A DNA stretch of 62,795 bases, counting the filler, from Hausera hauseri (Eukaryota): the NCBI GenBank assembly GCA_046269625.1. It is 12 parts of 12 records of this genome, joined end to end, with 100 filler letters (N's around TTAATTAATTAA, not from the genome) between each part and the next. Parts side by side here need not be neighbours in the genome. Positions count along the whole stretch, not along the records: positions 31,717 to 36,600 come from JBJURY010403701.1; 11 more parts are not named here. One strand, written 5' to 3'. The notes under the pieces are model-generated. The model ran no database searches, had not been told where the DNA came from, and worked only from the letters and a program-made list of their open reading frames with translations. Position numbers and translations under genes: made by a program. This document shows positions 19,691-58,452 of this stretch, piece by piece. Numbering within the stretch: the first letter of the stretch is position 1; each line of letters starts with the position of its first letter.

Positions 19691-21425
19691 TAGAGATGGG
19701 AAAAATCACTCAATTTTAAGATTTGAGATTGGTGACCCATTTGACCCTAATGACAAACTAATTCCAATCAGTCATTCATTCATTGATGACGTCACTCCCC
19801 TATTCGTTATTGAGATTACCGGTATCGTTTGTAATTGAAATAATCGTTTTTCGCGTAGACAACCATAGCAGTATCGAGCGCTGATATATTTACGATATTT
19901 ATAACGGGTCACTAATCTTGGCTCTTTGCAATCAGCCAATCATAAATCTCGAGTCCAGGAAATAGAAATAAAATATCGAAAGTATTAGGGGGTATTCATT
20001 TTCAAATATGAATGGGGGTAAAAAGTTTTGGTCAAGTTCTATTTTTAGACAAGACCTGCGCTCGGCGATTTTTCTTTGTTTTAACTAAAGCGGCCATTAT
20101 GAGCAGGTGAGTTAAAATATTACTCAAATATATAGATCTAGATCTAAGTAGCTATTTTATATAATTAACTAAACGTATGCACACATCAAATTGCAAATAA
20201 CTTCTTTCTTTCTTATCACTGGTCCAATAAGACTACTAGATTTTGATCTACTATAGCTCTATATTCAATGATCAGGCTAAATTTCTCTAGTCTTTATCCC
20301 GAGGGAAAAAAATAACTTCTGCTCACGGCAGGTAGACTACTAATCTATATCTAAAAAATGACTTTCTAAGCCTAAAAAGGTCGTAATGGTCACTTGGTCT
20401 TGTTCATTGCCTGAATAAAGTATTTCTATTTTAATGTCCTTTCCACATCATTATTCGTCCAAATTACTTTAGATATTTATGTCAAATCACATGTATCTCA
20501 TTTATTTAAAGTATTTGGTTAGAGATGATTTAATGAACTTAAATTTGTTTAAACAGAAATAACTTTTTTACTTCATTTCTTTCAGGTTTATGTCAATTCC
20601 ACGCTTTGTATAGCAGGACCAGTTCTCAGTAACATGTAAGTATTAAATAGTTAATCATGATCATTTCAGTCAATAGTTGTCAAATTACTTGAAAAAAATT
20701 TCATGTCTAGCCCATCTGAATCAATTCATTCTTTTGTAGTCATTGCAATAAAGTGTACAATTATGCTTTAGGCTATCTAAATATAGCCTATGATACAATG
20801 AATTCACATGGCACCAAGAATGGCATTGGTAACTTCTTAAAGGGATTGGTAAAGCCTGGAACTATGGAATCCAGTTGGAAAAATCAACCACCTCTGTCTG
20901 GCGCTCATACTATCAACCTAATCTATGCTTTCTCTGTTAAGTTTTCAGTGATTATACTTTTTACAGCAGTTGCAAAAGTAAGACTCTCAAAATAAGATAT
21001 GATAAGACCTTTACTTTTACACTGGAAATTTATTTAAAATCTCTTTAACTATATATACCAACTATATCAGCTGAGCTACTTGACCAGCTTTAAGGCATGA
21101 TTACATTTGTAAATGTCTGCTATGAGTAAAAGGTCTTTAGATAAAGAGATCTAATTTTTTTGTTCTTTCAGCCAATCCACCTACATAGACTGTAACTTCA
21201 CCTTGCCCAAAACTGTCCCCTAAAAGAATACAAAGAAAATTAGGTAAATAACTATTGTACTGACTAATGTGCATTTTTTTTTCAAATACATTTTTTTTTT
21301 TATTATATTCTTCATAAATATTTATTCATTAAATATGCTAATCATTTTTTTTTATTTAAAAAAAAAATAATGTTGGTTTAATCCTGCTATTTCCATTTCA
21401 GGTAATACTTTTTTAAGAGATAGTA

Positions 21426-23234
21426 ATGGAAAGCAAGAGAAAAAGAAGTAAAGTCTGGGACATATTCACATCTACTGAGGCAAACAAAAAAGCTAAATGT
21501 GGGTTGTGCAGCAGTATTATATCAACACCAGCAGCCTCTACAAGCAACCTAAGTAGACATCTAAAATTAAAGCACCCTTTTGTGTCATTAGAGCGCCAGC
21601 CAGAAGAACAACATACAGCTGATTTAATTGAAATTGACATCAACACGCCTACAACAAGCACAAAGAATGCTGAAGCCGTTCAGACAAAGATGTCCAGTTT
21701 TGTTAAAAGACCCATGTCTGCACATGTAAACAAAGCACTGGATGATCAGGTGTTAGTTATGTTAATTAAGGATTTTCAGCCATTTTCAGTGGTTGAAAGT
21801 CAAGAATTTAAAAAACTTGTACATATGTTAAATCCAAATTACAGTTTACCATCTAGAAAGACTGTTTCCACTGTATTATTACCTAAGTTATATTTAGAAA
21901 CAAAAGAAATTGTTAAAAAATATGTTATGGCAGCTGACTCTGTTTCTTTGACAACAGACAGCTGGACTTCCATTTCTAATGAAAATTTTCTAGCAATTAC
22001 AGCTCACTTTCTTAGTGAAAAAACTGAGATTAAATCATTTTTGTTAGACTGCTTCCAATTTAATGAAAGGCATACTGCAGAAAATTTATCTAGTGAGCTT
22101 TTAAGAATTGTAAATGAATGGAATATAAAAGATAAAGTCAGTGTTGTTGTAACTGATAATGCAGCAAATATTACAGCTGCAGTCAGGTTATGTAAATATA
22201 ATCATTTATCATGTTTTGCCCATACTCTAAATTTAATAGTACAAGCAGGGTTAAAAGAAATCAACACTATTCACAAAACAGTTAAAAGTATTGTAGAGTA
22301 TTTTAAAAGGTCTCCACAAGCTGCTCAGAAGTTACGTGTTACACAAAATCAGATGGGTCTAAATGAAATTAAGTTGAAACAAGATGTCTCAACCCGATGG
22401 AATTCCTCTTATGATATGTTTACACGGATATTAGAGCAGAAGGATCCTGTTGTCTCAACTCTTGCAATTGTAAATCCAGTTTTAAATAAACTATCTGAAA
22501 ATGACTGGTGTGTTCTTGAAAAAGCTTGTCAAATTTTATCAGTTTTTAAGGAAGTTACAGAGGAAATGAGCAGTGAAAAAAATGTCTCTGTATCCAAAAT
22601 TTTAGCTGTCATTGCAGGGTTAGAGACACATATTGATAAAGTTTTTAAAATTCCCAATCTTCCTCTTGAAATTTTTAGCATGGCAAATGTAATAAAACAA
22701 GATTTATCAAAAAGATTTAGTAATTCAGAAAAAAACTTAATCTTAGCTGAAGCCACTGCTCTAGATCCCAGGTTTAAAAAATATGGTTTTAGAAATAGTT
22801 TAAATTTTCAAAATTGTTGTACAAATATTGAAAAACAAATCTCCTCATTGCAGCCAGAAGTACAAGCAGTTACTGAATTACAGTCATATGCACCAACTCA
22901 AACTTCTACTCTTTGGGCTGAATTTGATAACCAAATGATTAATGTTATCAGTTCAGCTCATTCTACAGCCACAAATGCAGTAGAATTTGAAAGTTTTTTG
23001 CATGAACAAAATATTTTAAGACAGCAGGACCCTTTAAAATGGTGGGAAGAAAGAAAAAACCTTTATCCCAATGTGTATAAAATCATGAAAACTAGGTTAA
23101 ACATTCCTGCAACATCTGTGCCTTGTGAGAGGATATTTTCCAAGGGTGGGCAGGTACTAACCGAGCGAAGGAGTAGATTATCAGCTGATAAGTTATCACA
23201 GATCCTATTCTTAAATTATAATTATAAAAAGTAA
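21426..23234 (+). CDS. hAT transposase with BED zinc finger (ZBED1/ZBED4-like), 602 aa, intact
   Basis: BED finger SKVWDIF...AKCGLC...TSNLSRHLKLKH. Catalytic LTTDSWTS and VTDNAAN, CFAH (CxxH), TRWNS, LDPRFK. Dimerisation domain with PLKWW and PATSVPCERIFS. Confidence 0.95.
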   Translation: MESKRKRSKVWDIFTSTEANKKAKCGLCSSIISTPAASTSNLSRHLKLKHPFVSLERQPEEQHTADLIEIDINTPTTSTKNAEAVQTKMSSFVKRPMSAHVNKALDDQVLVMLIKDFQPFSVVESQEFKKLVHMLNPNYSLPSRKTVSTVLLPKLYLETKEIVKKYVMAADSVSLTTDSWTSISNENFLAITAHFLSEKTEIKSFLLDCFQFNERHTAENLSSELLRIVNEWNIKDKVSVVVTDNAANITAAVRLCKYNHLSCFAHTLNLIVQAGLKEINTIHKTVKSIVEYFKRSPQAAQKLRVTQNQMGLNEIKLKQDVSTRWNSSYDMFTRILEQKDPVVSTLAIVNPVLNKLSENDWCVLEKACQILSVFKEVTEEMSSEKNVSVSKILAVIAGLETHIDKVFKIPNLPLEIFSMANVIKQDLSKRFSNSEKNLILAEATALDPRFKKYGFRNSLNFQNCCTNIEKQISSLQPEVQAVTELQSYAPTQTSTLWAEFDNQMINVISSAHSTATNAVEFESFLHEQNILRQQDPLKWWEERKNLYPNVYKIMKTRLNIPATSVPCERIFSKGGQVLTERRSRLSADKLSQILFLNYNYKK

Positions 23235-26922: not shown

Positions 26923-29900
26923 TTTAGATAATTTAAATCATAAGGTCTTTATTGTCCGGGCTATATTATATATTAGTCTTTCTTTCTCGGTTAATATGTA
27001 GCCCTGGAGTCCGGTATAATTGATTGTCCTAATTATGTCTTTCATTAACTCAATTAGTTCTTCGTTATCTAAACTCGGGGTTGGTACTGATAGTTGTCTC
27101 AACTCCCTAATCAGGTCTGAATTATAATTGATTTCTTTTATCCTTTTTTGGTCTTCCGAACGGTCATTTCGGTTTCATTGGTGGTAAGGTTTCACTTAGA
27201 AAGACTACGTTTTTATTGTGTTACGGGTTGTCATTATCAGTCTGTAAGTATTCGAAATACATTGCGGCATCTTGAATCCCCATGATTCTTCCAACGCAGT
27301 GCTCTGTATGCGCCCTTCTCATGGCTTTGTCTTTGGTCTACGCACTAACGATTATTGCTATTATTCGGTTTTCTTTGTGGGGTATAATCCCTACGTCTAT
27401 TAAGGATTATAGCTCGTCTAGTATCATGCCCTGAAATGAAGTTGGTAATTAACTTCTTTCCTACTATCCTTATCCATTATCCGTTGTTTTATAGCCCCAA
27501 CGGTGGTATAGGTAGTACATTCAAATTCCTCGTCGCCCATTCCTTTGGGTGATACCTGCACTTTAATTTCCGCTTCCGATTTATTTCTCAATAGTTTAGC
27601 GTATTCTCATATTAGAAGTTTGGGTACGGCGCTGTATGCGGTATTTTCACTGGATAGCTTAGTCAAAGTTGGAATCAATTTCCTTAACTTATCTTCACTT
27701 ATGTTTATTTTCAATACACCGCTCAATTCCTTTTCATCTAGCACAGGATCAAGTAGCATTTGCACTTCAAATTTCGTCTTCTTGGCACCAGGAGGTGACT
27801 CATAAATTTGTACTGGGGTTCGTTGACTTTACTCGGTTAACCCTTGGAGATATTCATCCCACTCGGCATCATTATCTGCATCAGGTAACTCGTAGGTCAT
27901 TAGTGCCGCATGTCCAACCTGGACTCTTTCGCGTAGTTATTTTATCTGCGGTGGTAATGTTTTCATTACGGATACCCTAAATCCGTCTCCGTTTCCGCAT
28001 ACTTATTGTATCAATGTTATTAATCGGCACATTTCTTCTGGTTGTATCAGAGCTTTCTCTTGATAGCTAGTTATTTCTGCGATTCTGTCTCTTTGCCATC
28101 TCTATGAATTCCATTTTGTCATTCATTTCGGATTCCATAAGAGAGTATTTGTTTTTATAGACTTCTGTTTCCCTCAATAATTCATTTAGTTCGCGCTGTC
28201 TTTTCTCGGAGTGTAACCGGGTTTCTTTTATCAGACGTATTCGATTTAGTAGTCGTTTCGCTACTACTTCGTCAACTTCTGCCATTTCTGTTAATAATAG
28301 AAATAATTTATGCGTCCGATTTAATACTTCGGCGTCCGGGTCTATTGCGTCCTTTAGCCTGCTTATAAACTTGGCTTCATCGCTCGTCAACTGAGGATCA
28401 TTTCTAATTTCTTTTAGTTCGGTATGGCAATGTAGGTCAAAACCTGGTGTCCATTTGCTGGATTCTGTAAATATTGTAGTTTTTACGCCAGGGCAATCCG
28501 GTGACCGTTACGTACTTCCAATGTTTCTACCTCTTCTGCTGAGATTTCCTTCAACGGTTTCTGTATTAGGTTCCCTTCCCAACGGATGTTCGCTAAACTT
28601 CGCTGAAGATTACTTAGCTTGTTTCTTTTTCTGTAAAATTCCTTCTCCTCTATCATACTGTATATTTCTGTTAACGTTGTCAGATCTTGATTCTGGCTCA
28701 TAAACTTCAATTATCGGAATGATTCGAATTTAGTTCGCAATTTCGCTTTGTCTTCCATTGTACCAATATCCAGTAACATTTCCTCCAATTGGTGTCTCAT
28801 TATAGGCTCAGCCACAGCGAATTCTCTTAGTCTTTCATTTATTATCCCGGCTATGGAAGGTAACAAGTCTATCCACTTCCTTAATTGTTCCGATATTGCC
28901 GGTTTAGCATAGATTATTTCGTTTAACGTCTCGAGAGCTTCTTTTAGTTTGTGATCTGGTCCTCGTACTAATTCTATGATTTGTTTTATATAGTTGAATT
29001 CGTCTTTATATTCATCTAATTCGAGAAGGCAAGCGCGTATTATTCTCTGCTTCTACCTTTTTAGAGTGAACTACATCGATCCTTAAGTCGTTGATTTTGG
29101 TTCGTTTTTCATTTTCTCTTTTAATGCGTATTTCCAAATCTAGATATTATCGAGGGCTATCCTTTATCAGGCTGCACATTGCTATTAAAGAGGGAATATC
29201 AGCTGGGTCTATACCCAATATTTCTATATCAGCATTAGTCAATTCATATACTGGCTTTTTGTGAATGTGAGAAGTTATTGCGTCTTTGATCTCATGTATC
29301 AATCCCTCTAAATTACGTCTTACGCGTTTCAGTTTTGTGTTGCCCTTTAGTATGTTCAATAGTCCTTGCGCTTGATTAACCTGATCGAAGAACGGTTCAT
29401 TTTTATTCCACCATACTTTCGTAAAATCGATCCCACTCCTTGTCCACAGTTCCAATTTATTTTGCCAGCTTTCTATCAAGTCTTGCGGCCTCCTGGAGTT
29501 CGCGAAGTGTGTTTTCCTCTTTTGTAAGGCCGGTTTTAAGCTTTTTATATAGCTTTTCTATGAATTGCTGTTCTTTTCCGGAGATATCCAACTGCTTGCT
29601 CATTTGTTGGAGTTTTTGCATGCTCTCATGTAGCCTTCCAGGATCATTCGGTGTGTCTCTTATTTTATTTAGTTCATTTGCATTTTTCCAGGATTTTCTA
29701 ATCTTCCCAAATTTAATAGATGTTTCCTCTTCTGGTTCCTCTTCACTAGGTGGTAACGGACATATTTCATTAATTTCGTCGATATTCGAAGTACTTGCCA
29801 TTTCCGGAACGCCTCGGTTTATCACAGGAGTATTTAATTCCGAAGTCTTCTTTTTCTAATTCCTTTTTAATAAGGGATCGTGAACGACTTCCCGACATTC

Positions 29901-31616
29901 TCCTAAGAGAAGGGCTTCTACCTCTATTTTTGGTTATTTTAAGTATTAATGGACCAATAAATTCGCTCTCAACCTCGTCTGTTGTTTTGTCCTTATTCTG
30001 AGACGCGACCTCAGTGTCTGCGTCCAAGTGTACACTTGAAGGCGTAGTCTGCTTTTCTTCTTTCTCCTCTTTCGTTGCTTGATTTAGGTTTTTCTTTCTG
30101 GCCATGTTATTATTCCTAGGTGCTATAGCATTCTCGTATTCCGTTTTTGGTTCTCTCAATCCATGATAAACTTCCATTAGTTGCAATTTTTCTTCGTACT
30201 CCTTTCTAGCCTTGATTACCTGTGGATTATTGCATTCGCTCATATTTCTTATATACCTTCGTAGGTCTTGCATCTCGATAATCATGCTTATGTCACTTCG
30301 TTTCCCATATATTCCTTCTAAATTATCCTTTATCGTGCTAGCCTTAGTGGTTTTTGAAAATAATACACTCCGTGGGTTAGGGCACGATCTAGCTATATGT
30401 CCTTCCTTATCGTATGAGTAATAAATCAGATTCCCGTCTCGACCAATCCTTTGTCGTCCGTCTTCATTTAATGGTGATTTGGGTCTACCCGTTATTTTGT
30501 TTTTAGTTGGTTGAGCTTGCTTATCGATTCCGTTATTTCTATTTTCGAAATTTTGATTATCTATATATCGATTCTTATTACTTCGGTCATTATTTTGGTT
30601 CCTATCGGAAATATAACCTGTTTTATTATACGGATTATATGTGTTCCGATTATCACTAAAGTTTCTATTGTCATATCTCAATGCGGTTAATAGCATTTTG
30701 AGCTCTATTCTCATAGCCTCGGTCTTTATTATTGTCATTAAATCTTCTATTGTTTCGGTTTCTATCCTGATTTTTGCGATCGTTATTTCGGTCATATCTA
30801 TCACTCTTTAGCGTATCTATCTAGTGCCATTTCTAGGTTCTGTGCTAACTGTGGTGCAGTCTCGAAATTATCTGGTCGAGCTAAAATCAATTGATTAACT
30901 GAGTCTCTGGACCATATACCGTTATCAATTGCGTTGTCATCATGACATCTAAATTTGGTGGGCTGGCTTTTTCTGCCGCTTCGCGTTCCGCTTCTATTTT
31001 TGTCTTCGCCGCATTGGCTATCCTTAATATACTCACGTAACTATTAGTAAGCTTCTTTAGTGCGAACGCAAATNNNNNNNNNNTGGTGTCACCGTCGGCA
31101 ATAGTTTACGATTCAGGGCTCCTACTACAGAGGACCACGATTCCTTTTCGTCATTAGTAAGTTCGCTATAAGCATCGTTTAATCATAACCTCGGGCGCAA
31201 GGCTGGCACCTTCCGCGTGCAATTTGTATGTTCTTAAAAAGTCATTTAAACCGTCTGGATCTTTATAATATTACGGTAAGTTCAACCAATCGAACTTATA
31301 AATATCAAGTTTCTGTGCTATAGCTGGATTATCAGCTGCCATCTTTATTTTATTCGGTTTATCTACTTTATCAATTCTATGAGGAGCTTTAAATTCTTTC
31401 GCGAGAGTTAGTTCATTGTCGGATAAACCGTGTTTGTCTATTACTTTGTCGTCAATATAGAGTTTATTCCGTGTTTCTCTTTTATTAAGTTTCTCTGTAC
31501 CGTTTACTAATAAGTTTTGACACGAGTTGAATCTATCAATGTGTGCTCTCTAATTAGTTTTTACTTAATTCCATTTCTAACCACTTATAATCCCAAGTTT
31601 AAACTCTTTACTCGAA
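26923..31616 (-). mobile_element. Env-in-polyprotein retroelement, copy 1 (most divergent): Gag start through UBL/AT-hook; decayed
   Basis: MAADNPAIAQKLDIYKFDWLNLP*YYKDPDGLNDFLRTYKLHAEGASLAPEVMIKR (ATG at 31342), N/R/D-rich tract, degenerate knuckle YYSYDKEGHIARSC, LILKITKNRGRSP, EILGIDP, DAIDPD and DAAMYFEYLQTD. All are collinear with the other three copies. Confidence 0.85.
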
Positions 31617-31716: not shown

Positions 31717-34700
31717 CATACGATGGTGATCCGGACGGGTTAAATTAATTATTGAGAACTTATAAATTGCACGCAGAAGGTGACAGTCTTACTTTCGAAA
31801 TGACGATTAAACGTTTGACGTTATATTTGAAGAATTTAGCCGCTGATGCTTATAGCGAGCTCACTAATGATGAGAAGAAATCTTGGTCCTTCCCGGTAGG
31901 AGCATTAAACCGTAAATTATTGCCGACAGTAACGCCATAACAGAAGCTTATGGCATTTCAAAATAGAATGCAACAGAAGGGTAAATCGGTAACCCACTTT
32001 ACATTTGCATTGAAGAAACTCGCCAATAGTTACGTAAGTACCTTGAAAATAGTTAATGTAGCAAAAGCTAAAACAGACGCAGAACGAGATGCTGCGGAAA
32101 AAGCAACCCCGCCAGATTTGGACGTCATGATGACAACTCAATTAATTAATGGTATTTGGTCCCAAGACTTAATTAAACAGTTGACTTTGGCCAGACCGGA
32201 GAATTTCGAGAAAACTCTGCAATTGGCGCAAGACTTAGAAATGGCACTTGATAAATATGCCAGACACAACGATAGAAATGATCAAAATAATGATCGAAAT
32301 GACCGTAATGATAGAAATCGGAATGACAATCGTGGAATAGATGATAGACGATTTAATGGAAATAGAAATTATGAAAACAGAAATAATAATAATGACTACA
32401 GGAATAGTCGAAACAACAGTTATGCTAATTGCCGAAATATGAATAATTCAAATTCGAATAGAATCCGAGGAAACTACAAAAGTTCTAACTATCTAAATCA
32501 TGATGATAATAATCGAAATAATGATAGTCGAAGAAATGTAGATAGTATATAAAGTTTGCCGAATCAGTACAATAGAAGTATAAATAGGTCCAAGTCACCT
32601 GTGAAAGAAGACGGTCGACAAAGAGACGGCAGAAATGGAAATTTAATTTGTTTTACTTGCAATAAAGAAAGGCATGTTGCAAGGTCATGTCCCAATCCGC
32701 GTATCGTTTCATTTACTCAGCCTAATAAGACTAGTATGATTAAAGTTAATGAAAACTTAGAAGCAAAGTATGGTGTTCGTGGAGATACAGGTACTATTAT
32801 CGACATACAAGACTTGCGAAAATTTCTAGATGCTCAAGCTGAAACTAATCCACAAATTTTGATGGCTAAAAAAGATATGGAGATAAGCTAAGACTATAAG
32901 AAGTGTATCATGGTTTGGCAGAACCAGAAACTGAATATGAGTATGCGATGGCACCCAAGCGAATTGATATGATACGAAAAAAGTGTTCCGACGAGTAATA
33001 AAACAGCATATAAACAAGGAACTTTGAAAGAAGTCGACTTAGATGCAGACCCCGAGTTCACAGTTGAAAAGGTAGATAAGATTACCGAAGACGATATAGC
33101 TGAAAAAGAATTCATGGAGCCATTAATACTTAAAATTACGAAAAATAGAGGCCGCAGCCCCTTATTGGAAACGAAACGTAGAAGTCGTTCACGTTTGCAA
33201 GTAACTAGAGAGAAAATAAAAGAAACGAAAAATACGAACATCGCTGTAGAGAGCGACGTAGAGCCTAGCTTAAATAATCCAGAAATTGGTCCATTCACAC
33301 CTATCGAGGTAAAAGAATCTTTAGAATCAATTAACAAAATTAACAAGATTTGCCCACTTCCCATTAGTGAGGAAGAAACGGGAAATGGTCATGATTTTGA
33401 TCCAAGAAAGTGGAAAGTCCGACGTTGGTGGAAAAACGCCGATGAATTAAAGAAAATGAGAATTAGATGCCACGATCTAGAAATATTACAACGGAATTTA
33501 GAAAGGCTTAAGCAGATTAGCGAACAAGTAGATATATCTGGTAAAGAGCAACAATTTGCTGAGAGGTTATATAAAAGTTTAAAATTATGTAGTAAAGGAA
33601 AGCTCGATGAAGCAATCGACTTAGGACAACCTGAAGATGTACCACCTGAAACGTTGCTAAAATGGAAGCGTGAATTAGAATCATGGATTAAAAGTGGAGT
33701 CGAATTTTCGGAAGGATGGAGTAAAAATGAAGATAGTGTTGATGTAAAAGTCGCTAAAGTTCAGACGTTACTGTCTACTTTAGAAGCAAACCCAAAACTG
33801 AAGAGAGTAGCCCGTAATTTAGAGCGTATGATGGATGAAATTCGTTGTGCCATGATCAATCGGCTTAGAGAAAAACCGGTTAGCATTCGAAGTGATATCA
33901 ATTTAGAAATATTGGGTATAGACCCAGTAGATATTCCGCCCTTAATGGAGATGATACAAATCGCCTTTGCTGTACCCAAGCAATATACGAACTAAGAGAA
34001 TCGTATTAAATGGAAAATGAATGTGAACACAAATCTGCAGTTTGAGAAACCGAATTATGTTTTTAAATAACGAAGAAACCAAATACGTAATAAAAGCTTG
34101 TATCGTAGAATTTGATGAATATAAGCATGAGTTTAGTTATGTTGGCCGGATTATGAATTTCATAAAGGGTCCAGACGATGAATTAAAGGATGCATATAAA
34201 ATGCTAGATAAGGCCATATTGGCGAAGCTAATAATCGCCAATCAATTGTCGGAATGGTCCGAATTAGTAGTGAGATTATGAAAATTAGTGGAAGATCGTA
34301 GAAAAGAATTTCCAGAAAGCGAGCCTTCTATAAGGAAACAATTAGAAGAAAGTGCACGTAACTTAGATTCAATAAAAACGGAAATAGATATTTGCACTCA
34401 ATTCGAAGCATTACGACAATTAAATTTTATGAAGAAGAAGCAAGAAGTAATGATACTGGAAGAGATTTATAAAATGATGGAAGAAACAAACTTTACAGAG
34501 AAGCGAAATGACTTTCAATTTCTACCCAAGATTAAGAAACGTCCGACTAAAAGGAGTCCAACATTTAACAGATAAACTTATCGACGAAATTTCGATCCAA
34601 GATATCGAAACCTTAGATATTTGTCCAGAAAATAGAACAGTTTTAGAGGAAGGAATAAAATTTTTGCATGAACCACAAGAATGGATGGCCGGAACAGATC

Positions 34701-36600
34701 AGAATTGCTATACCGAGTTGACGAAAATAAGAAACGACCAACATCTTAGTTTTGAAGAGTCTAAGTTCGTAAAGAAATTACTCGATGCTATAGATCCCGA
34801 CTCAAAGTTCACTAATGAGATGTACGAGTTAGCTTTTCTCTTAGTAGAAATGGCAGAAATTAATGATGAGATGAGACAATTGATGCCAAAATTACGATAA
34901 GTTGAAGAAACATGCATCAGGACTAAACAAAGAGCAACCAAGTTAGACGAACTAATGAAGGAGTTCGAAGTCTATGGGAACAAATATACTTTTACCGAGT
35001 CAGAAATCAAAAATAAACGTGAATTTGTACAAAGATGGCAAAGATATGTAACTATTGAACTAACTGATTATCACCAAAAAGGACTCATCAATTCTAATGT
35101 ATTAGGCGAATTAGTGAAAATGATTCAATATGCCTGTGGAAATGGAATAGGTATCCGAACTACGCAGATGAAAGAAATACAACCGACACTTAAAGAAATT
35201 CGAGAGAATGTACAAAGGGCGCATACAACGTTAGTAGACTATGGACTTCTAGACGTTGGAAATGAACCGGAATGGGATGCGTACTTAGATGCACTAACGA
35301 CTGAGAATCCTGTGACTCCAGTACAGCTAAATGAAATAGAAACGTGTCCGCAGAACAGGAGATTCAATGTGGAGATGCCCCTGGATTCAGCGCTAACTGA
35401 AAAAGATTTAATTGAATTAATTAACGTAAATATTACCGAAAGTAAGTCAAGACAACTTATTCCGACCTTGATTGAATTATCTATTGAGAACACTACAGCG
35501 CGGTGTCGAAACTTTTGATAAGGAAATATGCTAAAATCTTGAGGGCTAAACCTGAAGTAGCGATGAAGGTAATGGTATCATCCGAGTGGATGGATGAAAA
35601 AGAATGTGAGTCAACTACGTATTCTTATGTAAGGAACGTAAGAGAATGATTAATAAATAATGGTGGAACAAACGAGTTAAACTATAGATTCTACTTTAGA
35701 GGTAGAATACTGGACGAATTAGAACAGTTAATAGATGTTGGAATTATCCCCGGCGAAGCAAATCGAATAGTCGTGATAATAGCCAATGAACAGACTAAAG
35801 AAGAAGCCACGCGTAAGGCTAAGACAGACCAATGCGTAGGACAAATCATGGGAGTCCGAGACGCTGCAATGTATTTCGAGTATTTACAAACGGATGATGA
35901 TAAGGAACAATACGATAAGAATTGAGTGTAACTGAGTGAAACGATAACCAATGTCCCAAGGCCGAAACGCCCAGTCGGTAGGCCTAAGAAGACGCTAGAA
36001 GAAGCTGACTATAATGGTGAATTGATTAGAGAATTGAGACAGATGTCGATTCTTACCTTCACCACAGACAATGAAGAATTTAATACGAATCATAAATTAT
36101 TTAAGCCTTCGAGGTGACATATTGGATGATAAAGAGAAGGCGATATTCAATGCAGCTAGGATGATGAAAAGTTCACGTTTCAAACTATCAAAAGGTAACT
36201 TAACCGATGAATCGGTAATCGAAAAAATCATTGTGGAAAACACCACTGAAGAATTAAGAAAAATATTACTATACTTCGCTATCAAAATAAACCCTAATCG
36301 AGAGAATGAAATTAATAGAGCTACAAGCTTAGCACGAAGAGCGGCGAGAAAGCTACCCTGCGAGTTAAATTGGTCGAGATTATTCGACAAGGGAGAAGAC
36401 AAACGGTTCGGTAATAGTAATAGACTCGAAGATACGTTATATAATTTGACAACGACGGATAATAGAAATCGGAATAATGAATCAAATTGGTTAATCAACT
36501 TACTCACCTTGATGATGCTAATAAAGCAAATAGGTGCTGTTACCGTCTATGACTGCGATAAGTTTAAACTAGGACAGAAGTGCTCTCGAATGGATTTAGA
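31717..36600 (+). mobile_element. Env-in-polyprotein retroelement, copy 2: Gag, CCHC, helical region, UBL, AT-hook, signal peptide, glycoprotein start; decayed
   Basis: Retrotransposon Gag capsid (YDGDPDGL...LRTYK...LYLKNLAADAY...QQKGKSVTHFTFALKKL...QLINGI). Knuckle CFTCNKERHVARSC at 32649-32690. UBL FYFRGRILDELEQLIDVGI at ~35560-35790. KRPVGRPKK at ~35965-35991. Hydrophobic NWLINLLTLMMLIKQIGA followed by VTVYDC. Confidence 0.88.
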
Positions 36601-36700: not shown

Positions 36701-39170
36701 GAAGCACTACGTAAACCAAATGGCATAAAGATATACTCATAAAGGCCAAATGGAGTAATAACAGCTGTTTTGGGACATCATCAGGTGCAACCGGAATTTG
36801 ATGATAAGCTTTATGCAAGTTAATTATGGAGTACGTGTTAGTGTTGGTATGACTGTGCAGGATGTCCTTTATGAGAGGTAAAGGGTAAGCATCCAGGGCT
36901 GTTAGTTTGTTTAACTGCCGATAGTAACCACATGGTCTGTAAGTGCCATCTTTCTTTGTCACTGCATGCAAAGGTGAACCCCATGGAGAGTTGTATCTTC
37001 GAATAAAGCCAGCCTTTTCGAGTTTACTGAACTCTGATTCAACGGCTTTTCGCCTACAATGTGACAGTGGTCTGACCTTTTGTCTGATAGGTCTTTGGTG
37101 TTCGGTGACTATATGGTTATAAGTTGTAGAATGCGGCTTAAAATTAACGTTTATCTTGAAAGTGCGGAAACAAGAAGTTTTGATGTAGGATTTAAGATTG
37201 AATTCCAACGATAAGAATGATGAGGGCATATTATTGGAAGAGTCAGTATCTGTAATTAATGTAGAATGATTGAACACTTCATTAAGGAAATTCGGTTCAA
37301 CCGACTGTTTCCAGATTGATTTGATCCCACTTAATGAAATTGGAAATATGGATGAATTATTAAGCGTATCGTTAGCAGCCGATGAACAGTATGTAAAATT
37401 GATAATTGAATGAACAGAGGAAAACAAGAAGGTGTACGACTTGTCGTCTGGTAAGCATTTGTTGGTATTTGCAACGTAGTTTCTGTGCAGGAGACATCTA
37501 TGTTTAGAGTCGACTAACAAATCGTATGCAGCCAGGAAATCGGAGCTTATTATTTGAGATCTTATACTGGCTATGTGAAATTTCCAATAGAATTTCCCTG
37601 TTAGGTTGGAGAATATGAAGGACTGTTTTGTGGTACCTACAATGTTCACGGGTTGACCACAGGCAGGGAAGAGTGGAGGAGAGAAAACTATGTTAGATAT
37701 AGGAGCAAAGTACAAAGGAAGAAGTGAAAAGGCAGCTCCTGAGTCGATAAGGATGTCTATGTGTGAGGTGTCTCCAAATAACAGTTCAGCTTTCAACAGA
37801 AAGACTGCAGAGGCTGTGTTGAAACGGCCAAAAGATTGAGCGATATTGCCTATACCAGAATGTGCCGTGGCATCTGGCGGCGTTACTAGTTTTTTGAGGC
37901 TTGTTGGGAAAAGAAGATGAACGATGAGTACGAGGAGGCGAAGAAGATGGGAAAAAACTAGAATTCTTTTTTATAATATTTGCATCCTGGCACATATGAC
38001 CTAGCCTGAGATTAGTATTTTGTGTGATAAATGCAGATTGGACTGTCTACTGCATAAAATGCGTCGTAAAATCTGCAGCCTAAAACAAATTTCCTTGCGT
38101 CTCTGCCGAATTTATTGTGATAAAACCGACTCATTCTTCCATCTTGAGATTTGGACCGGAAGCAGCGCCTGGAAAGGCTACGATTGCGCCAAACACGGTT
38201 TTCACTTCCTGTGGGCTGTAATCGCAGAAATTGCCTGTTTGAGTGTGTCGAACTGTTTCTGCATCATATGCAGTTGCTGTAAAAATAAAGTGTTATCTGC
38301 GTGTGGTGGCGTGTGAGCGGTTGCTGCAGCTACTGGTTATGAGTTATTTGATTGTAAGATGTCGAAATTTCTATCTGCCAACAATGCGAGTTTCTCGAGT
38401 GCCGTTGAATTGTCTACGACAGTAAGCAACGCTCTGATAGAGGTTGGTAGGGAAGAAAGAAAATACCGACAAAGAATATCGGCATTGTTTGTAGGAGTAA
38501 CACCTAAGGAGCTCAGTTGAAAGATTGCGGTTTTAAGGAAATCAGATGGCTTTTGATTTCCTATGGCATGTTCATTGAAGTATTTCTGTATTATTCTGTC
38601 AATGGAAGGATCGATAATAAGTAGGATTGATTCATACGTCATGTCATATGGATTTGAACATATGAGTATGTCGGCAAGATTACTGATTTGCTGTTTGATA
38701 TTTGCTGGAAGAAGCAGCAAGCTGTTCGCCCGCAAGAAAGAATCTGTAATGTGATTGGCTTTAAGCCATTGCAAATGGAATTGTAACCAGGTGCGACTCG
38801 AATTAGTTTTGTCAAGAAAAACATCTGTGCAAGGAAGATTTAGAGATGTGGTTGGTGTGGGGACAGCAGGACGATGACCAGATCTGGTCTTGGTGGAGTT
38901 TTCAGTATAAGAAGGATCGGGGTCCGATTCACCCTGTAGGCGGAAGTGGAGTCAGGTGGGTGGTTTGGGAGGAAAAGAAAGAAAATTGGTCATGGACGTT
39001 AAGTATAGAGCCATGATACGAGATAAAAGTCTGAGGAGTGGAGGAGGAAGGATAGATGTTTGTGAAGGCAATGTAAAGTATCTATGTGTGTCGAACTGAA
39101 GGTATAGAGGTGTATATTATTGAAAATAAATAAACAGGGATAAGGGATGCGGTGCAGTGGGCGCGGTCAC
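36701..39170 (-). mobile_element. CsRn1-like Ty3/Gypsy element: UBL leader, Gag with CHCC motif, protease, RT start; decayed
   Basis: Gag ITDSFLRANSLL...GNQKPSDFL...FLSSLP...LEKLALLAD. Degenerate C-x2-H-x9-C-x3-C motif near 37985-38035. Protease LIDSGAAFSLLP...IISSDFL. RT SPWGSPLHAVTKKDGTYRPCGYYRQLN...DAYPLP...AYHQIPVAPDDVPK. Confidence 0.88.
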
Positions 39171-42420: not shown

Positions 42421-43699
42421 TTCAGAAATTCCAGATCACAAAGAACGAAAATCCAGATAAGACGGATTGACAATACTTTATTTAGTTTCAAAATTCTTCA
42501 ACTCAATTAATCAATTTTTTACAATTATACATATATACATATATTTACAAAGGCCAAAACGTTCACGATAATCAGACTAAAACACCGCACTGTGATATCA
42601 CAAAATCCTTCTGCATGTTAGTTGGGAAAATTGTAGAAGTGTGAACTGAAGTAACAATCTCACATTCTCGTTGACAATCGATAATCCATAGGCGATTTAG
42701 GTCGTTGTTCGTACAAATTGGACGCTCCAATGTCACGAAAACTTTAATTTTTCTGACATGATTTTTTGTTTTCTTATTATTTGAATGCATGTCGTTGCGC
42801 GGATTTGTTTTGAGACACTTGTTTTTCTTTAGTGATAGAATTATTCGACTCAGTTAAATTGGAATCAAATTTTCTCAATGAGTCAGTCAAATAGCTGGCC
42901 GAATGATTGGAATCGGATGATAACGGTTATTGTTTTGATAATTTAAACTTTCCTAATCTGAATCGTAAATGTTAATTGACGTTACTTCAATTCGTGCNNN
43001 NNNNNNNNNNNNNNNNNNNNNNNNNNNNNNNNNNNNNNNNNTTAATTAATTAANNNNNNNNNNNNNNNNNNNNNNNNNNNNNNNNNNNNNNNNNNNNGTA
43101 GCAGAAGTATAATCTTTCTTCTGCTGTTTTTTCTTATTATTCGACTTCGAGGCATCTCCTCTACGTAATCTACATGATTTAGCTATATGCCCATATTTAT
43201 TACAATTAAAGCATTTTAGTCTCCCTTCGGAGTCTATATTAGGTAAGGATCTTCCATCCTTTTTAGTTCTCTTTTTATAACTTACTTTTTCTCCATCATT
43301 CCGTAGATTGAATCTAACTTTCTTTTCTCCGTCTGACTCGGCTTCTGTAGCTGACGTCTGGGAAGGACTTCTATTTCTGTCGTAACGCTGATACTTTTGG
43401 GTACTATTGTTTCGTCTTTTATCGTAGCTATTATTATTGCTTTTAGATCTGTTCCACCTATATAGTTCCGCGTCTCGTTCAGCTTTCCGTGCCTTTCTTA
43501 TTGCTTCTTGGAACGTCGGTGGGTCTGCTTGAGAAATTATCGTTCTTAATCTTTCTTCTAATCCGTATTGGAACTGGGATGTTTTCGTCTACGGGTATCC
43601 ATACTTCTCCAAATTTTCTATCCTTAGCATTTTTCACGCCTTTATTCGGTCTGATTTCTAGTAACTTCCCTGTTTGTAAATCGATTGCTATATTTGGTA

Positions 43700-43990
43700 A
43701 TCTTTTCAGTAGATCACATCCTAGAACTACGTAATCGGTTAATTGCTCCATAACTGCAACTTCATGATGGAAAAACTGTCCAACTATTTGAACTTCTGGG
43801 TTCCATTTAAACATTGGTTTCGACATTTGGCCAAAAGCTCCTGTACTTCCTGGATCTTTCGTAGACGGTGGATATAACTGTCCTCTCAGCGTTTGAGATA
43901 TTGAATCATTTTTGATGTAAGACATCTCAGAGCCCCTATCAATTAATGTATAAACCTCCCAATCTTCAATAATAATCTTAGCGAAAGGTC
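43700..43990 (-). pseudogene. Retropepsin-type aspartic protease
   Basis: RPFAKIIIEDWEVYTLIDRGSEMSYI...GAFG...VVLGCDLL. The catalytic DTG/DSG reads DRG here; AGG is one change from ACG. Confidence 0.8.
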
Positions 43991-44689
43991 GTCCTTCGAT
44001 TACTGTTCGGAAACAATTTGACGCTACGCTTGGACGTTTGATCACCGATATTTTATGTCCATTGATTCGGATTTCTGGGGAGGATACTATGTTCTCCGAT
44101 ATCTGTCTTAACTCTTCGCTTGGATATAATTCGTTGTTTTCGATGTTTAATTCCGCCGTTTCGTGAGTACTAATTAACGATTCTCGATTGTTAGTGTGTA
44201 GCTCGGTATGTTGGAAGGTTTTTAACCTCGGTTTATCCCAAACCATCGATCTAGTTTCTATATTTTTAGGTTCTCTTGGTGAGTATAACATCTTGGAATC
44301 ATCGGTGGTTTGTCGATAGCACATTCTTCGTAAAATCCCGTATCGTTTGGTTCATTCATAAGGGTCTTCTACGTTGATTGTTCTTTTATAGATTTTCGTC
44401 TGATATGAGCTCATTGAACGTTTATCACAATCTTTATAGAATGGGGCGGAAGGAGGTAGCATAGGCAACGGCGCTTTAATGACAGAGTAAGTCTTATGTC
44501 GGTTTATTCCTGAAAGCGCTTCTCCTCCCTTAGGTTCGTCATCATCTGAATCATTTCTTCGCGAATTATGTTTTGTAAATTTCCGCTTTCGCAAGAATAT
44601 GGACCTTCCTCTTCGTTTATAACAATAGTAACTGACATGGCGTTCTACGTCCCATTTCCATCTATTCTCTTCGTATGCCTTTAAGAATT

Positions 44690-46449
44690 TTGCAAAAGGC
44701 GTTATAATTGCAGTCAATATCTTACATGAAAATCCAGTCAATGTAAATATTTCATAGCCATTTATTACTGCTTGGATGACTGCTTTAATTATGTGTATCA
44801 GAAAATAAATAGGTAAGAATCCGGATGCAGCTTGTCCGAATATCAGAAATCTTCCCCGTATTTTGTATAGTATCTCAGTTGTCACTCGCGGATAATGGTT
44901 TACGCCAAGTAAAGATTCCCATTTAGCCTGGTATCGTGTATCGTCCACTACAGAAGCCATAGCTCGATTTAACTCGTGTGTTCGCTGTCGTGGGAAGGCA
45001 AGGAATTGCTTAAAAGCCTCAATTTCCTTCGGTCTGTGTATGCCTTTCGATGAAGTGTCCTGAAATTTATCGTCTGTAATTCCTTTCGCGAGATTTAGTC
45101 ATGTTAATTTATTTGGAGCGGCAATAATACCTCCATTTGGCAAACTGACCCAATCTGTCTCATTACGTCTAAACATAGGTTCTCCTAAGCTTGCCTTACA
45201 ATTTTTAAGAATGGTCGGTTGGGTAGCGTTGTCCAATAACACTCGTCAGCGGTGTAGCTAATCTTGGAATATTTTGGTAAATAACAGGAAGTTCCTGAAT
45301 GCAACGTTTTTTCTAAGTTGATAGGTACATCTCTCTTTTCACATTCATAGGTTATCAATACTTCACTTGTAACTCAACCGAATATTCCTTCTCTCATAGG
45401 AATTATTGGAAAAGCCAGTTCTGAGTTTGCATATATCAGAGCCATTTTCGTTCTCATGATTTCCGTATCCAATTTGAAATCATTCATTATCATTTTATGA
45501 TATAATTCTGTTATTCCGACTTGTCCTTTGTAGTAAAAGTAATCGTCTCTATTCTTCAGGTAATCTTCGATGCGGACATCCTGCGTTTCTAATTTATAAG
45601 CTTTTGCATTTATTCCCGTTTCTGCGACGAAAAATGCCCCATAATTCGTAGCAAACATCACTACATCACAGCGAAAGATCACCTCTTTTTTAATAGATTT
45701 CAATCCATGTTGATTCGAGATTAATATAGTGGTTGTAGAGTGTTCTGATACATCCTCACGTGTCCTGGAGTTGGTTTCCGATTTGTCCACATATCGCTTT
45801 CCTGTAGTCTCATTAAACTTTAGTTCCTTAATTTTAATAAACTTGCAACATCTTTTAGAGAGGAGGCTCCCATATTATAACCGAACTTCTAAAAGTACAG
45901 GTTCTGTTTTGTAAATGACATTTTTGATTCTCGGTATATAGTTCGGTGACAATATGGAACATTACTTTCTGTGATCGCATTTCTGATTCGTAGAAATCCA
46001 CAACCACCACGTTTGCTTCTAATCCTTTTTCGGTGTCGTATTCTGCTCCATTACAATGTCCGCTATGCATATCCAATCTTCTGGCCACTATTTTGTATGC
46101 CCTGATTATTTTTCCTGGTTGCATCTCTAATTGCATACTATCCCATTGTACTCTTCCAGTTTCCTTGGCTTGTTTGCAGTGTTGGCGTTATAAGTACAGT
46201 GGAATTAGTGGAGTGGTTGGCTTGATTATGGATAAGTGTCCGTGTACCAACCCACAGTGAAAAATGCTGCGTGATCGTCTTAGCATAAATTCCATTCCAT
46301 TTAGCGATATCAGTTCTTGCTGCTGATACAGGAAGTAATTTTTCTATTTTGTATCCAACTTGTGTGGTCTGGCATCTTCGCATACTTCCAGATCCATTAG
46401 GGAATACTCTGTCCTCATTTAAACTTATTGCAGTCGTAAACGGTTACAG
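44690..46449 (-). pseudogene. Chuvirus-like (class III, herpesvirus gB-fold) envelope glycoprotein, frameshifted
   Basis: Starts VTVYDC after a signal peptide. Cys spacing C...C-x8-CG...C...GHCNG..Y...VVV...C-x5-C...IIWE; LYHKMIMND.KL..EIMRTKMAL..ANSELA; G..GRVT.EVL..YEC; LATPLTR; GI..PKEI..F..FLAFPRQR; FLIFGQAASG...IIKAVIQAVINGY...GFS.KILTAI. This follows the chuviral/Anakin-type glycoprotein pattern as recalled; no search was run. Confidence 0.75.
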
Positions 46450-48358
46450 CGCCTATATGCTTTACTAGCATCATCAAGGTGAGTAAGCTAATTAGCCAAT
46501 TTGATTTATTTTTCCGGCATCCAACGTCTGCCGTGGTCAAATTACGTAGCATATGGTCGAGTTTATTACTGTTTCGTCTGTCTTCTTTACTGTCAAATAG
46601 TCTTGACCAATTTACTTTATAGGGCAATCTTCTTGCTGCTTTTGGTGCTAGGCTTACAGCTCTATTGATTTCGTTCTCTCGATTAGGGTTTATTTTGACA
46701 GCCAAGTATAGTAGTACTTTTCGCAACTCCTCGTTGGTGTTTTCCACCATGATATTTTGATTACCGATTCGTCGGCTAAATTACTTTTCGATACCTTAAA
46801 ATGTGAACTTCACATCCTACTGGCTGCATCGAAAATTATTTTTTCTTTACCATCTAGTGTGTTAATCCGGAGACCCGAATAATTTACAATTCGTATTAAA
46901 TTCTTCATTAACTCATTTAATTATTCGTTACTTGTACTAAATGTCGGAATCGACATCTGTCTTAGTTCTTGAATCAATTTTCCGTTATAATCAAGTTCTT
47001 CTCGTGTCTTTTTAGGCCTGCCAAATGGGCGTTTAAGCTTTGGGCCTTTAGCGGTTAGTTCACTCCGTGGTACTAAATTTATATCGTATTGTTCCTTGTC
47101 TTCATCCGTTTGTAAATACTCTAAATACATTGCAGCATCTCGGACGCCCATAATTTGTCCTACGCATTGCTCTTCCTTAGCTTTGCGAGTAGCTTCTTTT
47201 TTGTCTGTTCGTTAGCCATCGTTACTACTATTCGGTTTCTTTCGCCGGGAGTAATCCCGATATCTATTAATTGTTCTAGGTCGTCGAGTATTTTGCCTCT
47301 AAAATAAATTCTATAATTTAGCTCATTTGTTCCGCCATTATGTAACAACCATTCTCTAACGTCCCTTACATAAGAGTAAGTGGTTAGCTCACATTTTTTT
47401 TTGTCCATCCACTTAGACGATACCATTACTTTTACCGTTACCTCGGGTTTTGCCTTCAAGATTTTAGCATGTTTCCTTATCAAAAGTTTCGGCACCGTGT
47501 TATAAATGGTATTCTCACTAGATAATTTAGTTAATGTAGGAATAAGTTGTCTTAACTTACTTTCAGTAATGTTTACATTAATTAATTAAATTAAATCTTT
47601 TTTAGTTAGCGCTGAATCCAGGAGCATCTCCACATTGAATTTCTTGTTCTGCGGACACGTTTCTATCTCATTTAGTTGCACTGGAGTCGTGGGTTTTTCG
47701 GCCGTTATTGTCTCTAAGTACGCATCCCATTCCTATTCATTTCTTATATACGGAAGTCCATAGTCTACTAAGGCTATATTCATTCGTTGCACATTTTCTC
47801 GGGTTTCTTTCAATCTCGGTTATATTTCTTTCATCTGCGTAGTTCGGAAGCCTATTCCGTTTCCACGGGCATACTGAATCATTTTCAATAATTCGCCTAA
47901 ATTATTGGAATTGATAAATCCCTTTTGGTGATAATTAGTTAGTTCAATAATTACATCCCTTTGCCATCTTTGTACAAATTCTCGCTTTTTTATTTCTAAT
48001 TTTGTAAAAGCATAACTGTTTTGATAGATTTTGAGTTCTTTTGCTAGTTCATGCAGTCTCGTTGCTCTTTGTTTTGTTTTGATACATGTTTCTTCTACTT
48101 GCTGTAATTTGGGCATCAGTTGCCACATCCTCTCATCATTAATCTCCTCCATTTCCACCAATAGGTAAGCTAGCCCATATATCTCGTTTATGACTTTTGA
48201 ATCTGGATCCATTGCATCCCGCAATTTCTTTACGAATTTAGCTTCCTGAAAACTGAGANNNNNNNNNNNNNNNNNNNNNNNNNNNNNNNNNNNNNNNNNN
48301 NNTTAATTAATTAANNNNNNNNNNNNNNNNNNNNNNNNNNNNNNNNNNNNNNNNNNNN

Positions 48359-48660: not shown

Positions 48661-49202
48661 ATTGAGTGATGTTATGTGCAAGAGCTGACATGGATATGCG
48701 CATTATTGTATCCAATAAAAACACTGTACGGAGAAACATTTAGAAGCCCATATTGCTAATTTTAACTTTGCATAATTTTTTTTCTATATGATTAATTAGA
48801 ATAAAATGTAGTTGTAAACTCTGACTAACAATATGGTGTTGTTCCATTTAAATAACGTAAGTTAAATCAATATTGAAATAATGTTGGTTTTTTGCAGCCT
48901 GTCACATTCACTCAATGGTCCACTGAATAGGCTACATACTATGGTACAGATGAACGGATGGGTTAAATGAGTATGACGTGTATTTGACAATACAATGCTA
49001 AATATCTGACTTTATTGTTTAATTATGCTTACATTATAAACATTTTAGTCATGGTCACCATAGCATTATATTCGTGAAAGTCTCCAATGTCATCAATTAC
49101 TCTTTTTACCATAAATTGATTCTTGAACACAAAGTGTCAATCGACTGAGCAGTAATTTACGTGACGACCCTCTCCAAAATTCTACCCAATACAAAATGTT
49201 AC

Positions 49203-49505
49203 CTGTGGCTGTTCGCTACAGAATTGTAAAATACTGCAAATTTTATCGACATCGAATTCGGACATTATAATGTTAAAAATGATAGTGAAATATTGATCCA
49301 CCAACTGTTGGCACTGAATAAATAAAAAATTTCTAACGACACGTTTGTCAAAAAGCATTACTTTTGCGGCTTCGGATCTGAAAAAAGAACAGATATCATT
49401 TTTAATGAAATTTTTCACAGCATCCTGGTGACTTTGATCGGTAATGAATTTTTTGATTTCCCCAAGAACAAGTTTACATGCTTCACATTCGATAGATTCC
49501 AATTT
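49203..49505 (-). CDS. Saposin B-type domain (prosaposin/saposin-like protein), two internal exons 49505-49362 and 49313-49203
   Basis: CEACKLVL...IC......CQQLVDQY...ICSILQFC has all six saposin cysteines once the 48-nt GTAATG...TTCAG intron (49361-49314) is removed. Flanked by acceptor CTCAG| and donor |GTAACA. Confidence 0.85.
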
Positions 49506-50989
49506 CTGAGTAGGCAATGAAACATCAAACAAGTATTCGAATTGGGATGGGCAAAATCAATGCCAGTTCCACCATCAATTCTCATAACCACCAATCAACA
49601 GAAAATAAGCACCAATAATTTTATTTCGATGAATGTATACAAGCAATATACTCGTCCTGTTTGTGTGATACTGTTGGCATCGAGTTCGGATATAATATTC
49701 ATTTAATAATTGTTGTTACTGAACAGAAAAAATGGACAAATTCTGTTGTTTAGAAAGTTTTTGATACTATCCTGATGGTCTAGAGAGAACAAGAATAATG
49801 AGGTTACGTGCCTCATATTCTAGTTTGCAAAACAATAATAGATGACAGAAAATAAAGTTCCGTCGATCAACATTTAATAAACGACAAATGAATTAACAGT
49901 TCTGTGTTATTGTATCTGCTATATTTTTCTCGAAGAATTGGACATACGTATATGTTTTTATGTGGGACTCGATCAAGAGACTTAATGATGGCATGCATAT
50001 TTGAACTGNNNNNNNNNNCAACACAGATTCTTCCGAGGGTGGGCCTGGGCTCGGGTCTTACATAAAAAAACAAAAACTGTTTTCCTGATCTGTTCAGACT
50101 GGGTTGGGCTAAAGCTAAACAAGTGCATCAAAGGCTTCTAAAAATTACTTCTGCGACTAACATGGGTACGAAACAGCGACGACATACTAGCGGAGAAAAA
50201 AATCGATGGATGTGCGTGTAACATGGCCAATCCGTCATTCCAGATAGATATATGAACTACCTCGATAAGCAAGCTACTTCATAATATCAAATCAGTTGAA
50301 TTATAAAGCGAGGGACACCCAGAAACCATCCGTGTATTCTATTAGGCCAAACAATCACCAGAAATCATTCAGCAAACTGCGATACCTGTGACGGTGATGG
50401 AGATGATGATGTTGATTGTGGACACATGTGTATAAGTGCACAAACTTGATCCGCATTAAACTCCTCAATAATGGCATTAATCACAGCACTAAAGTACTGA
50501 TCAACAAATATTTGGCACTGAAACAATCAATCGTAATGCCAGTGAGTTCTACTTATTACTTGAGTAACTTGCAATTGGAACAATGGGCAAATTTGAGTTT
50601 TTATGAAGTTTTGAATTTGAAATTGGAAATTCGGATCAGTTATGGTATGAATTACTTGGTTCATAACGGCTTTACATTGATCACATTGAGGTGTACTGGA
50701 TTTCTGACAATCAGATCATTATTAGCATTTAAAAATACTGAAGACATTTTATAAGCGTGTATTTCCAAAATTCAGGGTGTTCTAAATTCTGTTTCCAGAA
50801 ATTCCCAAATATTCAAACAAATTTTCATGCACATTAATTTTTGCTTATTTTATTAAACTTTAAAATACATCACGCTTTCGTTGAATCAATAAATAAAACT
50901 TTAAATCTTGCATAATTTAGTGTTTATCAAATTTTTCTCAAAATTCATCATCACTTCCCTCTCACTGAAAAGTCTTTAAACATTCAGTA

Positions 50990-58400: not shown

Positions 58401-58452
58401 ACTAGACAATGCAACTGAACCAACAATCCTTAAAGATTGTAAAGCAAGTTTA
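52434..58452 (+). mobile_element. Env-in-polyprotein retroelement, copy 4: Gag through glycoprotein ectodomain; decayed
   Basis: Gag, intact knuckle CFTCSKEGHIARTC (53364-53405), UBL FYFRGRILDDLKQLIDVGI, PVGRPKK, signal peptide and glycoprotein (MDLEVCEDARP...GHCNEAEY...CHLQDGTC...LATPFTRVLLDN). All lie on one contig and strand, apart from a 10-N gap at 57391-57400. Confidence 0.88.

Follow-up and report, generated by a model that had tools for sequence, protein, structure and literature searches.

Copies of the element and their surroundings

The window analysed here is a stretch of 62,795 nucleotides from Hausera hauseri, in which contigs are joined by 100-base linkers of the form N44-TTAATTAATTAA-N44; hence parts flanking a linker are not truly adjacent. 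Self-comparison revealed four decayed copies, named A to D, of one LTR retroelement on separate contigs of this concatenation. Judged from its domains, the element is a decayed envelope-bearing LTR retrotransposon. Copies C and D were missing from the list of the first-pass annotation.

31717-36600 (+): copy A (self-comparison)
43098-48258 (-): copy B (self-comparison)
52434-58452 (+): copy C (self-comparison)
26923-31616 (-): copy D, distant from A, B and C (self-comparison)
26923-31300 (-): copy D from gag to the start of the leader, a distant subfamily with 35-75% amino-acid identity
36601-36700 (no strand): assembly linker cutting off copy A, not biological

Identity amounted to 86% between A and C, to 77-78% between B and each of these two, and to about 65% for D. 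Every one of the four copies is broken by stops and frameshifts. The contigs bearing them are about 4.7-6 kb long, each copy is cut by a contig end or a breakpoint, and copy D ends upstream of the signal segment discussed below. The organization was pieced together from overlapping copies, A and C covering the part from gag to env and B the part from env to protease. By this comparison the order is gag, charged region, ubiquitin-like domain, helical leader, internal signal, chuvirus/gB-type glycoprotein, anchor, tail and protease. Neither an RT nor an LTR belonging to this element was found within the window.

A hint to the host came from a SKI2-like helicase (1356-4595, -), a single uninterrupted ORF of 1079 codons on another contig with its best match to a Schistosoma protein. 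In a quick tree of 19 rows, which used 18 of the 120 listed matches and was without any triclad, it grouped with Schistosoma and Spirometra (SH-aLRT 100). Since the helicase of the window, Schistosoma and Spirometra all form long branches in this tree, a flatworm host is likely rather than shown.

Further features of the window are as follows.

5334-10073 (+): ORF of 1579 codons, in which inspection by eye shows several C2H2-like zinc fingers as well as AT-hook-like motifs
15975-18380 (-): fragments similar by eye to the protein-primed DNA polymerase B known from Polinton-like elements
21417-23234 (+): ORF of 605 codons that resembles an intact hAT transposase bearing a BED finger (by eye)
36701-38951 (-) and 60103-61944: second, env-less gypsy-like family with gag, protease and RT (RVT_1 E 1.2e-05), represented by two copies at about 68% identity
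39322-42268 (-): interrupted ORFs that match winged-helix profiles weakly (eWH_GTF3C1 E 0.0012); this may be a gene for a TFIIIC subunit or a copy that has decayed
49182-49556 (-): saposin-like cysteine pattern (by eye), probably a host exon

Coding phase from gag to env

The regions upstream of the glycoprotein were delimited as listed.

31719-32849 (+): gag, copy A, broken by stops (zf-CCHC E 0.0075, below cut-off)
32649-32690 (+): CCHC zinc knuckle, copy A, the single knuckle in gag
53364-53405 (+): CCHC zinc knuckle, copy C, counterpart of the knuckle of copy A
32850-35589 (+): long charged region, copy A, broken, assigned by its position between gag and the ubiquitin-like domain
35590-35754 (+): ubiquitin-like domain, copy A, position taken from the alignment
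47408-47244 (-): ubiquitin-like domain, copy B (Pfam ubiquitin E 0.0018, 18.4 bits, cut-off 25.4)
36071-36484 (+): leader of about 138 residues, copy A, beginning with an ATG that every copy has

Between A and C, gag displayed a dN/dS of 0.28. The charged region, with values of 0.15-0.36 between copies, had no Pfam match at cut-off, and an Atlas search with its copy C piece gave no usable match. The ubiquitin-like domain is located about 100 residues upstream of the ATG at 36071, and 5 of the 8 weak PDB sequence matches of this piece (E 0.2-1.4) were ubiquitin-like. An AlphaFold model of the region reached a pLDDT of 33 and gave no Foldseek match under E 1. The leader begins at 36071 in A, 46908 in B, 56768 in C and 27045 in D. 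Its dN/dS of 0.15-0.49 between copies indicates purifying selection. A low-confidence AlphaFold model (pLDDT 39) suggests that the leader may be helical, and it is presumably cytosolic; Foldseek returned no match under E 1 for this model, which speaks neither for nor against a BCL2-like fold. Annexin matches to the leader (best E 0.014) were dismissed as chance helical similarity.

The first-pass annotation had stated that the helical domain ahead of the signal reads without a stop in two copies. An open run indeed precedes the signal, but its length is no more than about 138 codons in A and some 90 codons in B, short of the whole Gag-helical region. Copy A carries a 20-nt deletion just before 36071, and the leader of copy B contains one stop and one 1-nt frameshift. 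None of the four copies is open from Gag to Env. With stop-free runs of this length, we infer a Gag-Env fusion by comparing copies rather than reading it directly.

For this comparison each copy's own letters were read in one codon phase anchored on the ATG at 36071. A, B and C differ by 17 frame-changing indels, each of them private to one copy; 9 of these lie in the overlap covered by A and C only and were polarised using the tblastx frames of copy D. Likewise, 24 out of 25 stop positions were private to one copy (11 stops in 1612 codons of A, 6 in 612 of B, and 9 in 1590 of C). Third positions were most variable in all 12 windows that include B and in 11 out of 16 A/C windows. Over gag, middle region and leader dN/dS ranged from 0.15 to 0.49, selection was seen on both sides of the signal junction, and no in-phase stop common to B and C was found within env. 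The comparison of copies supports the gene order gag-env-protease and a single codon phase from gag to env. We lean towards the view that the active element made one uninterrupted ORF, and so a polyprotein, from gag to env. A leaky stop or a separate env ORF with a long leader, taken jointly, has an appreciable chance that falls short of even.

Several apparent irregularities were set aside. Two apparent frame changes in the four-copy phase scan were mis-polarised 1-nt indels and disappeared once two columns were taken as insertions in A, in agreement with the frames of copy D. A shared stop in one 14-codon env block and shared stops in two C/D tblastx segments lay in the wrong phase.

No intact relative turned up in database searches. 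In word-based searches of proteins up to 2000 residues, which places giant polyproteins outside their reach, none of 765 candidates matched the junction ORF and none of 1186 candidates matched the C-terminal part of env with X at the stop. A junction profile had no match among 1.84 billion representatives, and the phage collection gave no match.

The stop position that is not private (1 of 25) is a TAA four codons before the ATG of the leader.

46921-46923 (-): in-frame TAA, copy B, common to B and C; candidate ORF boundary or leaky stop
56753-56755 (+): in-frame TAA, copy C, aligned with the TAA of copy B

Owing to this codon, the fixed stoichiometry of Gag and Env proposed in the first-pass annotation, which a single polyprotein would set at 1:1, is not established. 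Copy A is unable to arbitrate, because its 20-nt deletion (between 36069 and 36070) covers the site; copy D is open at the aligned codon (27060-27058). Upstream of env, B and C display a dS of 0.8 and a dN/dS of 0.18, indicating purifying selection during their divergence. As they diverged as selected lineages, they are unlikely to have inherited the TAA from an ancestor that was already dead. A stop was shared anywhere in 25-32% of 20,000 permutations, and by B and C specifically in 7-9%. The share fell to 2-3% when a Met present in three copies also had to lie within six codons of the stop common to B and C, a requirement picked after the data were seen. If the element made a single polyprotein, the TAA codons of B and C would be two independent decay mutations.

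An unlikely alternative is that in the A/B/C group the Gag-side ORF ends at the TAA and is leaky, a minority of ribosomes continuing past it to translate leader, signal, env and protease. The long product would then still have the topology with an internal signal, and Env and protease would be made at less than 1:1 with Gag. The occurrence of the TAA in two lineages with purifying selection on both sides fits such a stop, and in B, C and D the codons from stop to ATG still follow a coding pattern. A gag-first element also needs an excess of Gag. Conversely, UAA is usually the least leaky stop, and copy D is open at the site. No conserved RNA structure was detected downstream of the TAA, the z-score being about -2.6 at best in C and +0.8 to -0.3 in B. 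Moreover, the related planarian element Burro is described as a single ORF (PMC6431247).

Quite unlikely is a fresh start at the ATG at 36071, either by reinitiation after the TAA or from a subgenomic RNA. Env would then carry about 140 cytosolic residues ahead of its signal in the manner of the foamy virus Env leader peptide, and Gag would be unfused to Env. The foamy virus Env leader is described as 120-130 residues long with a cytoplasmic N-terminus (PMC7828637), and accessory domains of Burro-like elements are reported inside the polyprotein or as separate ORFs (PMC6431247). The ATG occurs in all four copies, shortly after the TAA common to B and C, and the permutation P of 0.02-0.03 also speaks for a separate start. 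Against it, Met conservation is not rare, since A, B and C have 12 Met codons in common, no pyrimidine-rich common acceptor lies upstream, and copy D is fused here. The spacer of four codons from TAA to ATG seems to be translated, with a hydrophobic residue followed by E-L in B, C and D; hence coincidence or readthrough fits better than reinitiation.

Very improbable is expression of env by splicing or internal initiation from the MM codons within the signal. These codons are kept in A, B and C, and B and C carry an AG a few codons upstream. However, this AG is missing in A, and the last AG common to the three copies lies about 95 nt upstream with 3-6 pyrimidines in the 15 preceding bases. The first-pass annotation had raised a conserved splice acceptor just upstream as a sign of separately expressed env; no pyrimidine-rich one was found among the 30 common AGs from 35800 to the MM codons, the 15 bases before them never containing more than 9 pyrimidines. 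Furthermore, a start at MM would remove most of the hydrophobic core and leave 9 residues before the cleavage site, and the leader that it would bypass is under purifying selection. With no such acceptor and so short a remainder, the sequence gives no support for a spliced env.

Internal signal-like segment, glycoprotein and putative protease

The single polyprotein remains our preferred reading, and the following features determine how it would be arranged in the membrane.

36485-36538 (+): internal signal-like segment, copy A, ending in IGA (hydropathy scan); predicted cleavage after 36538
46448-46501 (-): internal signal-like segment, copy B (alignment and hydropathy scan)
57179-57226 (+): hydrophobic core, copy C; cleavage site and YDC gone in a 41-nt deletion
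36539-36600 (+): first 20 ectodomain residues, copy A, cut by the contig end
44855-46447 (-): chuvirus/gB-type (Monjiviricetes) ectodomain, copy B, broken (PF24664)
57237-58452 (+): ectodomain, copy C, broken and cut by the contig end (PF24664 38-207, E 6e-06)

As initially described, the ORF at 36071-36600 (+) runs open from its ATG through NWLINLLTLMMLIKQIGA|VTVYDC up to the contig end, and the motif recurs in copy B at 46780-46415 (-). Copy A is the sole copy open over the junction of signal and ectodomain into the part covered by B and C; copy B has a stop 10 codons past the proposed cleavage site. The best 11-residue Kyte-Doolittle mean of the core was 2.3-2.7 in all three copies that cover it (A, B, C), compared to at most 1.84 in nine scanned upstream fragments, of which one (C mid2) is partly off-frame. 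The signal segment is the strongest short (11-residue) hydrophobic stretch among the scanned fragments, and the A/B dN/dS across its region is 0.13 (28 codons). The signal-like stretch is real, beyond chance. The analysis supports an internal signal about 140 residues past the nearest possible start, continuing in frame into an ectodomain of class III (chuvirus/gB-type). The piece of signal plus YDC alone had no Pfam match. Signal peptidase sites follow the (-3,-1) rule, which IGA fits, and cleavage may well occur after these residues.

The glycoprotein itself is well recognizable. In copy B, pieces of PF24664 follow each other in profile order (108-208, 245-388, 432-601; best E 5e-18), and the best match of 64.9 bits clears the cut-off of 27. 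An Atlas search agreed, with PF24664 clusters as top matches (0.91-0.92). Between B and C, a dN/dS of 0.07 over 345 codons of env points to strong purifying selection. In copy C the first PF24664 match begins at profile position 38, about 16 residues past the proposed cleavage site, which would leave about 22 profile positions for the signal peptide in stand-alone members of the family. Synonymous sites of B and C differ more in env (45186-46400, -, versus 57240-58452, +; distance about 1.6) than upstream of it (0.8), which may come from noise due to saturation or from recombination close to the boundary of env.

As copy A stops 20 residues into the ectodomain, anchor and protease are known from copy B alone.

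44763-44852 (-): H1, C-terminal hydrophobic segment, candidate anchor (19-residue Kyte-Doolittle mean up to 2.04)
44685-44756 (-): H2, second, more amphipathic hydrophobic segment (maxima: Kyte-Doolittle mean 1.52, hydrophobic moment 1.4)
from 44618 (-): basic tail after H2 (sequence of copy B)
44352-44354 (-): TGA separating the env tail from a protease ORF in the same frame, copy B only
43698-43994 (-): retropepsin-like protease with non-canonical catalytic motif (RVP E 0.014, gag-asp_proteas E 0.054, both below cut-off)
43100-43588 (-): fragment of a different gag abutting the protease (zf-CCHC E 1.5e-05; CCHC 43213-43172)

On the basis of hydropathy and the known rules, the ribosome would make about 1,590 cytosolic residues before the internal signal directs it to the translocon of the ER. 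Signal peptidase would cut after IGA, and the Gag-side product would stay anchored through the signal helix until freed by the element's protease. The ectodomain would be luminal, and an odd number of C-terminal membrane passes would bring tail and protease back to the cytosol. In this respect the topology put forward in the first-pass annotation appears largely sound. Its cytosolic, membrane-tethered protease goes beyond what is established, because two hydrophobic segments lie at the C-terminus of env, the only copy covering the link to the protease contains a TGA within it, and the protease matches are below the Pfam cut-off. A search for PDB sequence support of the protease domain was negative.

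On which side the protease comes to lie depends on the number of times H1 and H2 cross the membrane. The two segments are only a few residues apart, and position-independent Hessa-scale sums failed to separate them; an H1-H2 hairpin would place the protease in the lumen. A differing arrangement, compatible with the other readings, in which H1 and H2 both cross, the protease is translated apart from Env, or the signal stays uncleaved as an anchor, would mean that the protease is not tethered at the cytosolic face. It would agree with the proximity of the two segments, with the TGA before the protease, and with some errantiviruses whose gB-type ectodomains are predicted between two transmembrane domains (PMC13524379). 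Nevertheless, we regard it as improbable: the protease is in the env frame, H2 is amphipathic and a strongly basic tail follows. By the positive-inside rule such a tail favours the cytosolic side, a retropepsin must reach cytosolic Gag, and the fit of IGA to a signal peptidase site speaks against an uncleaved anchor. Thus, the amphipathic H2 and the basic tail favour one pass and a cytosolic protease.

The gag fragment next to the protease comprises a capsid end and a zinc knuckle, and resembles the gags of A, C and D at the knuckle only. No RT was found after it. It probably represents another element or a breakpoint, for which a nested element, a deletion or a misassembly come into consideration.

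Relation to known elements and implications

In the core-E1 region of flaviviruses and hepaciviruses and in alphavirus structural polyproteins, a cytosolic capsid ends in the signal of the next glycoprotein, and signal peptidase cuts. Hydropathy and motif fit are compatible with a similar internal signal between a cytosolic capsid and a luminal glycoprotein in our element. This likeness is an analogy and no homology is claimed, since the element combines a class III-type fusogen with a zinc-knuckle Gag and a retropepsin.

The closest parallels were found among retroelements. In the planarian element Burro/GYPSM1 (Schmidtea, Dugesia), an env with homology to mononegavirus fusion proteins is reported in frame between gag and pol; it lies in an ORF of 4,873 aa downstream of a Ubi/SUMO-like motif and is called by its authors the first such case (PMC6431247). 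Our element shares with Burro a CCHC Gag and env before the protease, and probably a ubiquitin/SUMO-like motif, here in a probable flatworm host. It differs in that one CCHC knuckle was seen instead of two or three, and in that its span of about 1,600 codons from gag to env carries a candidate stop before the env leader in two copies. Burro exceeds 30 kb with LTRs of several kb; our copies lie on contigs of the few kb given above. MATH, BIR, ankyrin and BCL2 motifs had no Pfam match in the broken fragments, in which decay lowers sensitivity. As these extra motifs of Burro were not found and pol lies beyond the covered copies, the element is considered Burro-like and is not filed as Burro.

A broader class comprises the GAG-ENV-POL errantiviruses with an ENV of the HSV/gB type reported by Chary and Hayashi (PMC13524379) in Nematoda, Bryozoa and Platyhelminthes, 9 of them from flatworms. 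Their ectodomains are described as lying either between a signal and a membrane domain or between two membrane domains. In gene order and env class they agree with our element, and in an unscored comparison by eye, motifs and cysteines of the ectodomain appeared colinear with six Schmidtea C1a sequences of the supplement to that study. These errantiviruses have a Ty3/gypsy POL; none of our copies extends past the protease. By gene order and env class, the element is an additional decayed member of this class. Because gene order and in-frame env have already been published, the element itself is no surprise. The main text of PMC13524379 is silent on how env is translated.

There is also precedent in other families. 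Atlas virus, of the nematode Belpaoviridae, has its Env within one intron-free Gag-Pol-Env ORF of 2,828 residues, so that a retroelement env inside a polyprotein is not without example; there Env is C-terminal, of class II (phlebovirus-like) and without an enzyme after the anchor, whereas a putative protease follows in our element (PMC9094657). Anakin elements, which belong to the BEL/Pao group of mosquitoes, represent capture of a chuvirus glycoprotein by an LTR retrotransposon (PMC7642597), and share this type of glycoprotein with our element. In the text of the papers covered, no account was found of an internal-signal topology or of a stop ahead of env for such elements, nor anything on the membrane topology of chuvirus glycoproteins.

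The element provides a concrete signal sequence, a putative cleavage site and one candidate control codon. These are relevant to the question of how a glycoprotein in the middle of a polyprotein is translated and folded, and how a 1:1:1 ratio of Gag, Env and Pol is avoided. Should Pol have to pass the ER while linked to Env, expression of the envelope would be coupled to retrotransposition, unlike in retroviruses with spliced env. It is possible, and we suggest it tentatively, that the A/B/C subfamily evolved a programmed stop between the Gag-side ORF and the env leader while the sister subfamily D stayed fused. If so, readthrough or reinitiation placed upstream of env would adjust the amount of Gag relative to Env plus protease, and would supply a precursor of the form Env-protease(-Pol) that spans the membrane and has a cytosolic leader and an internal signal.
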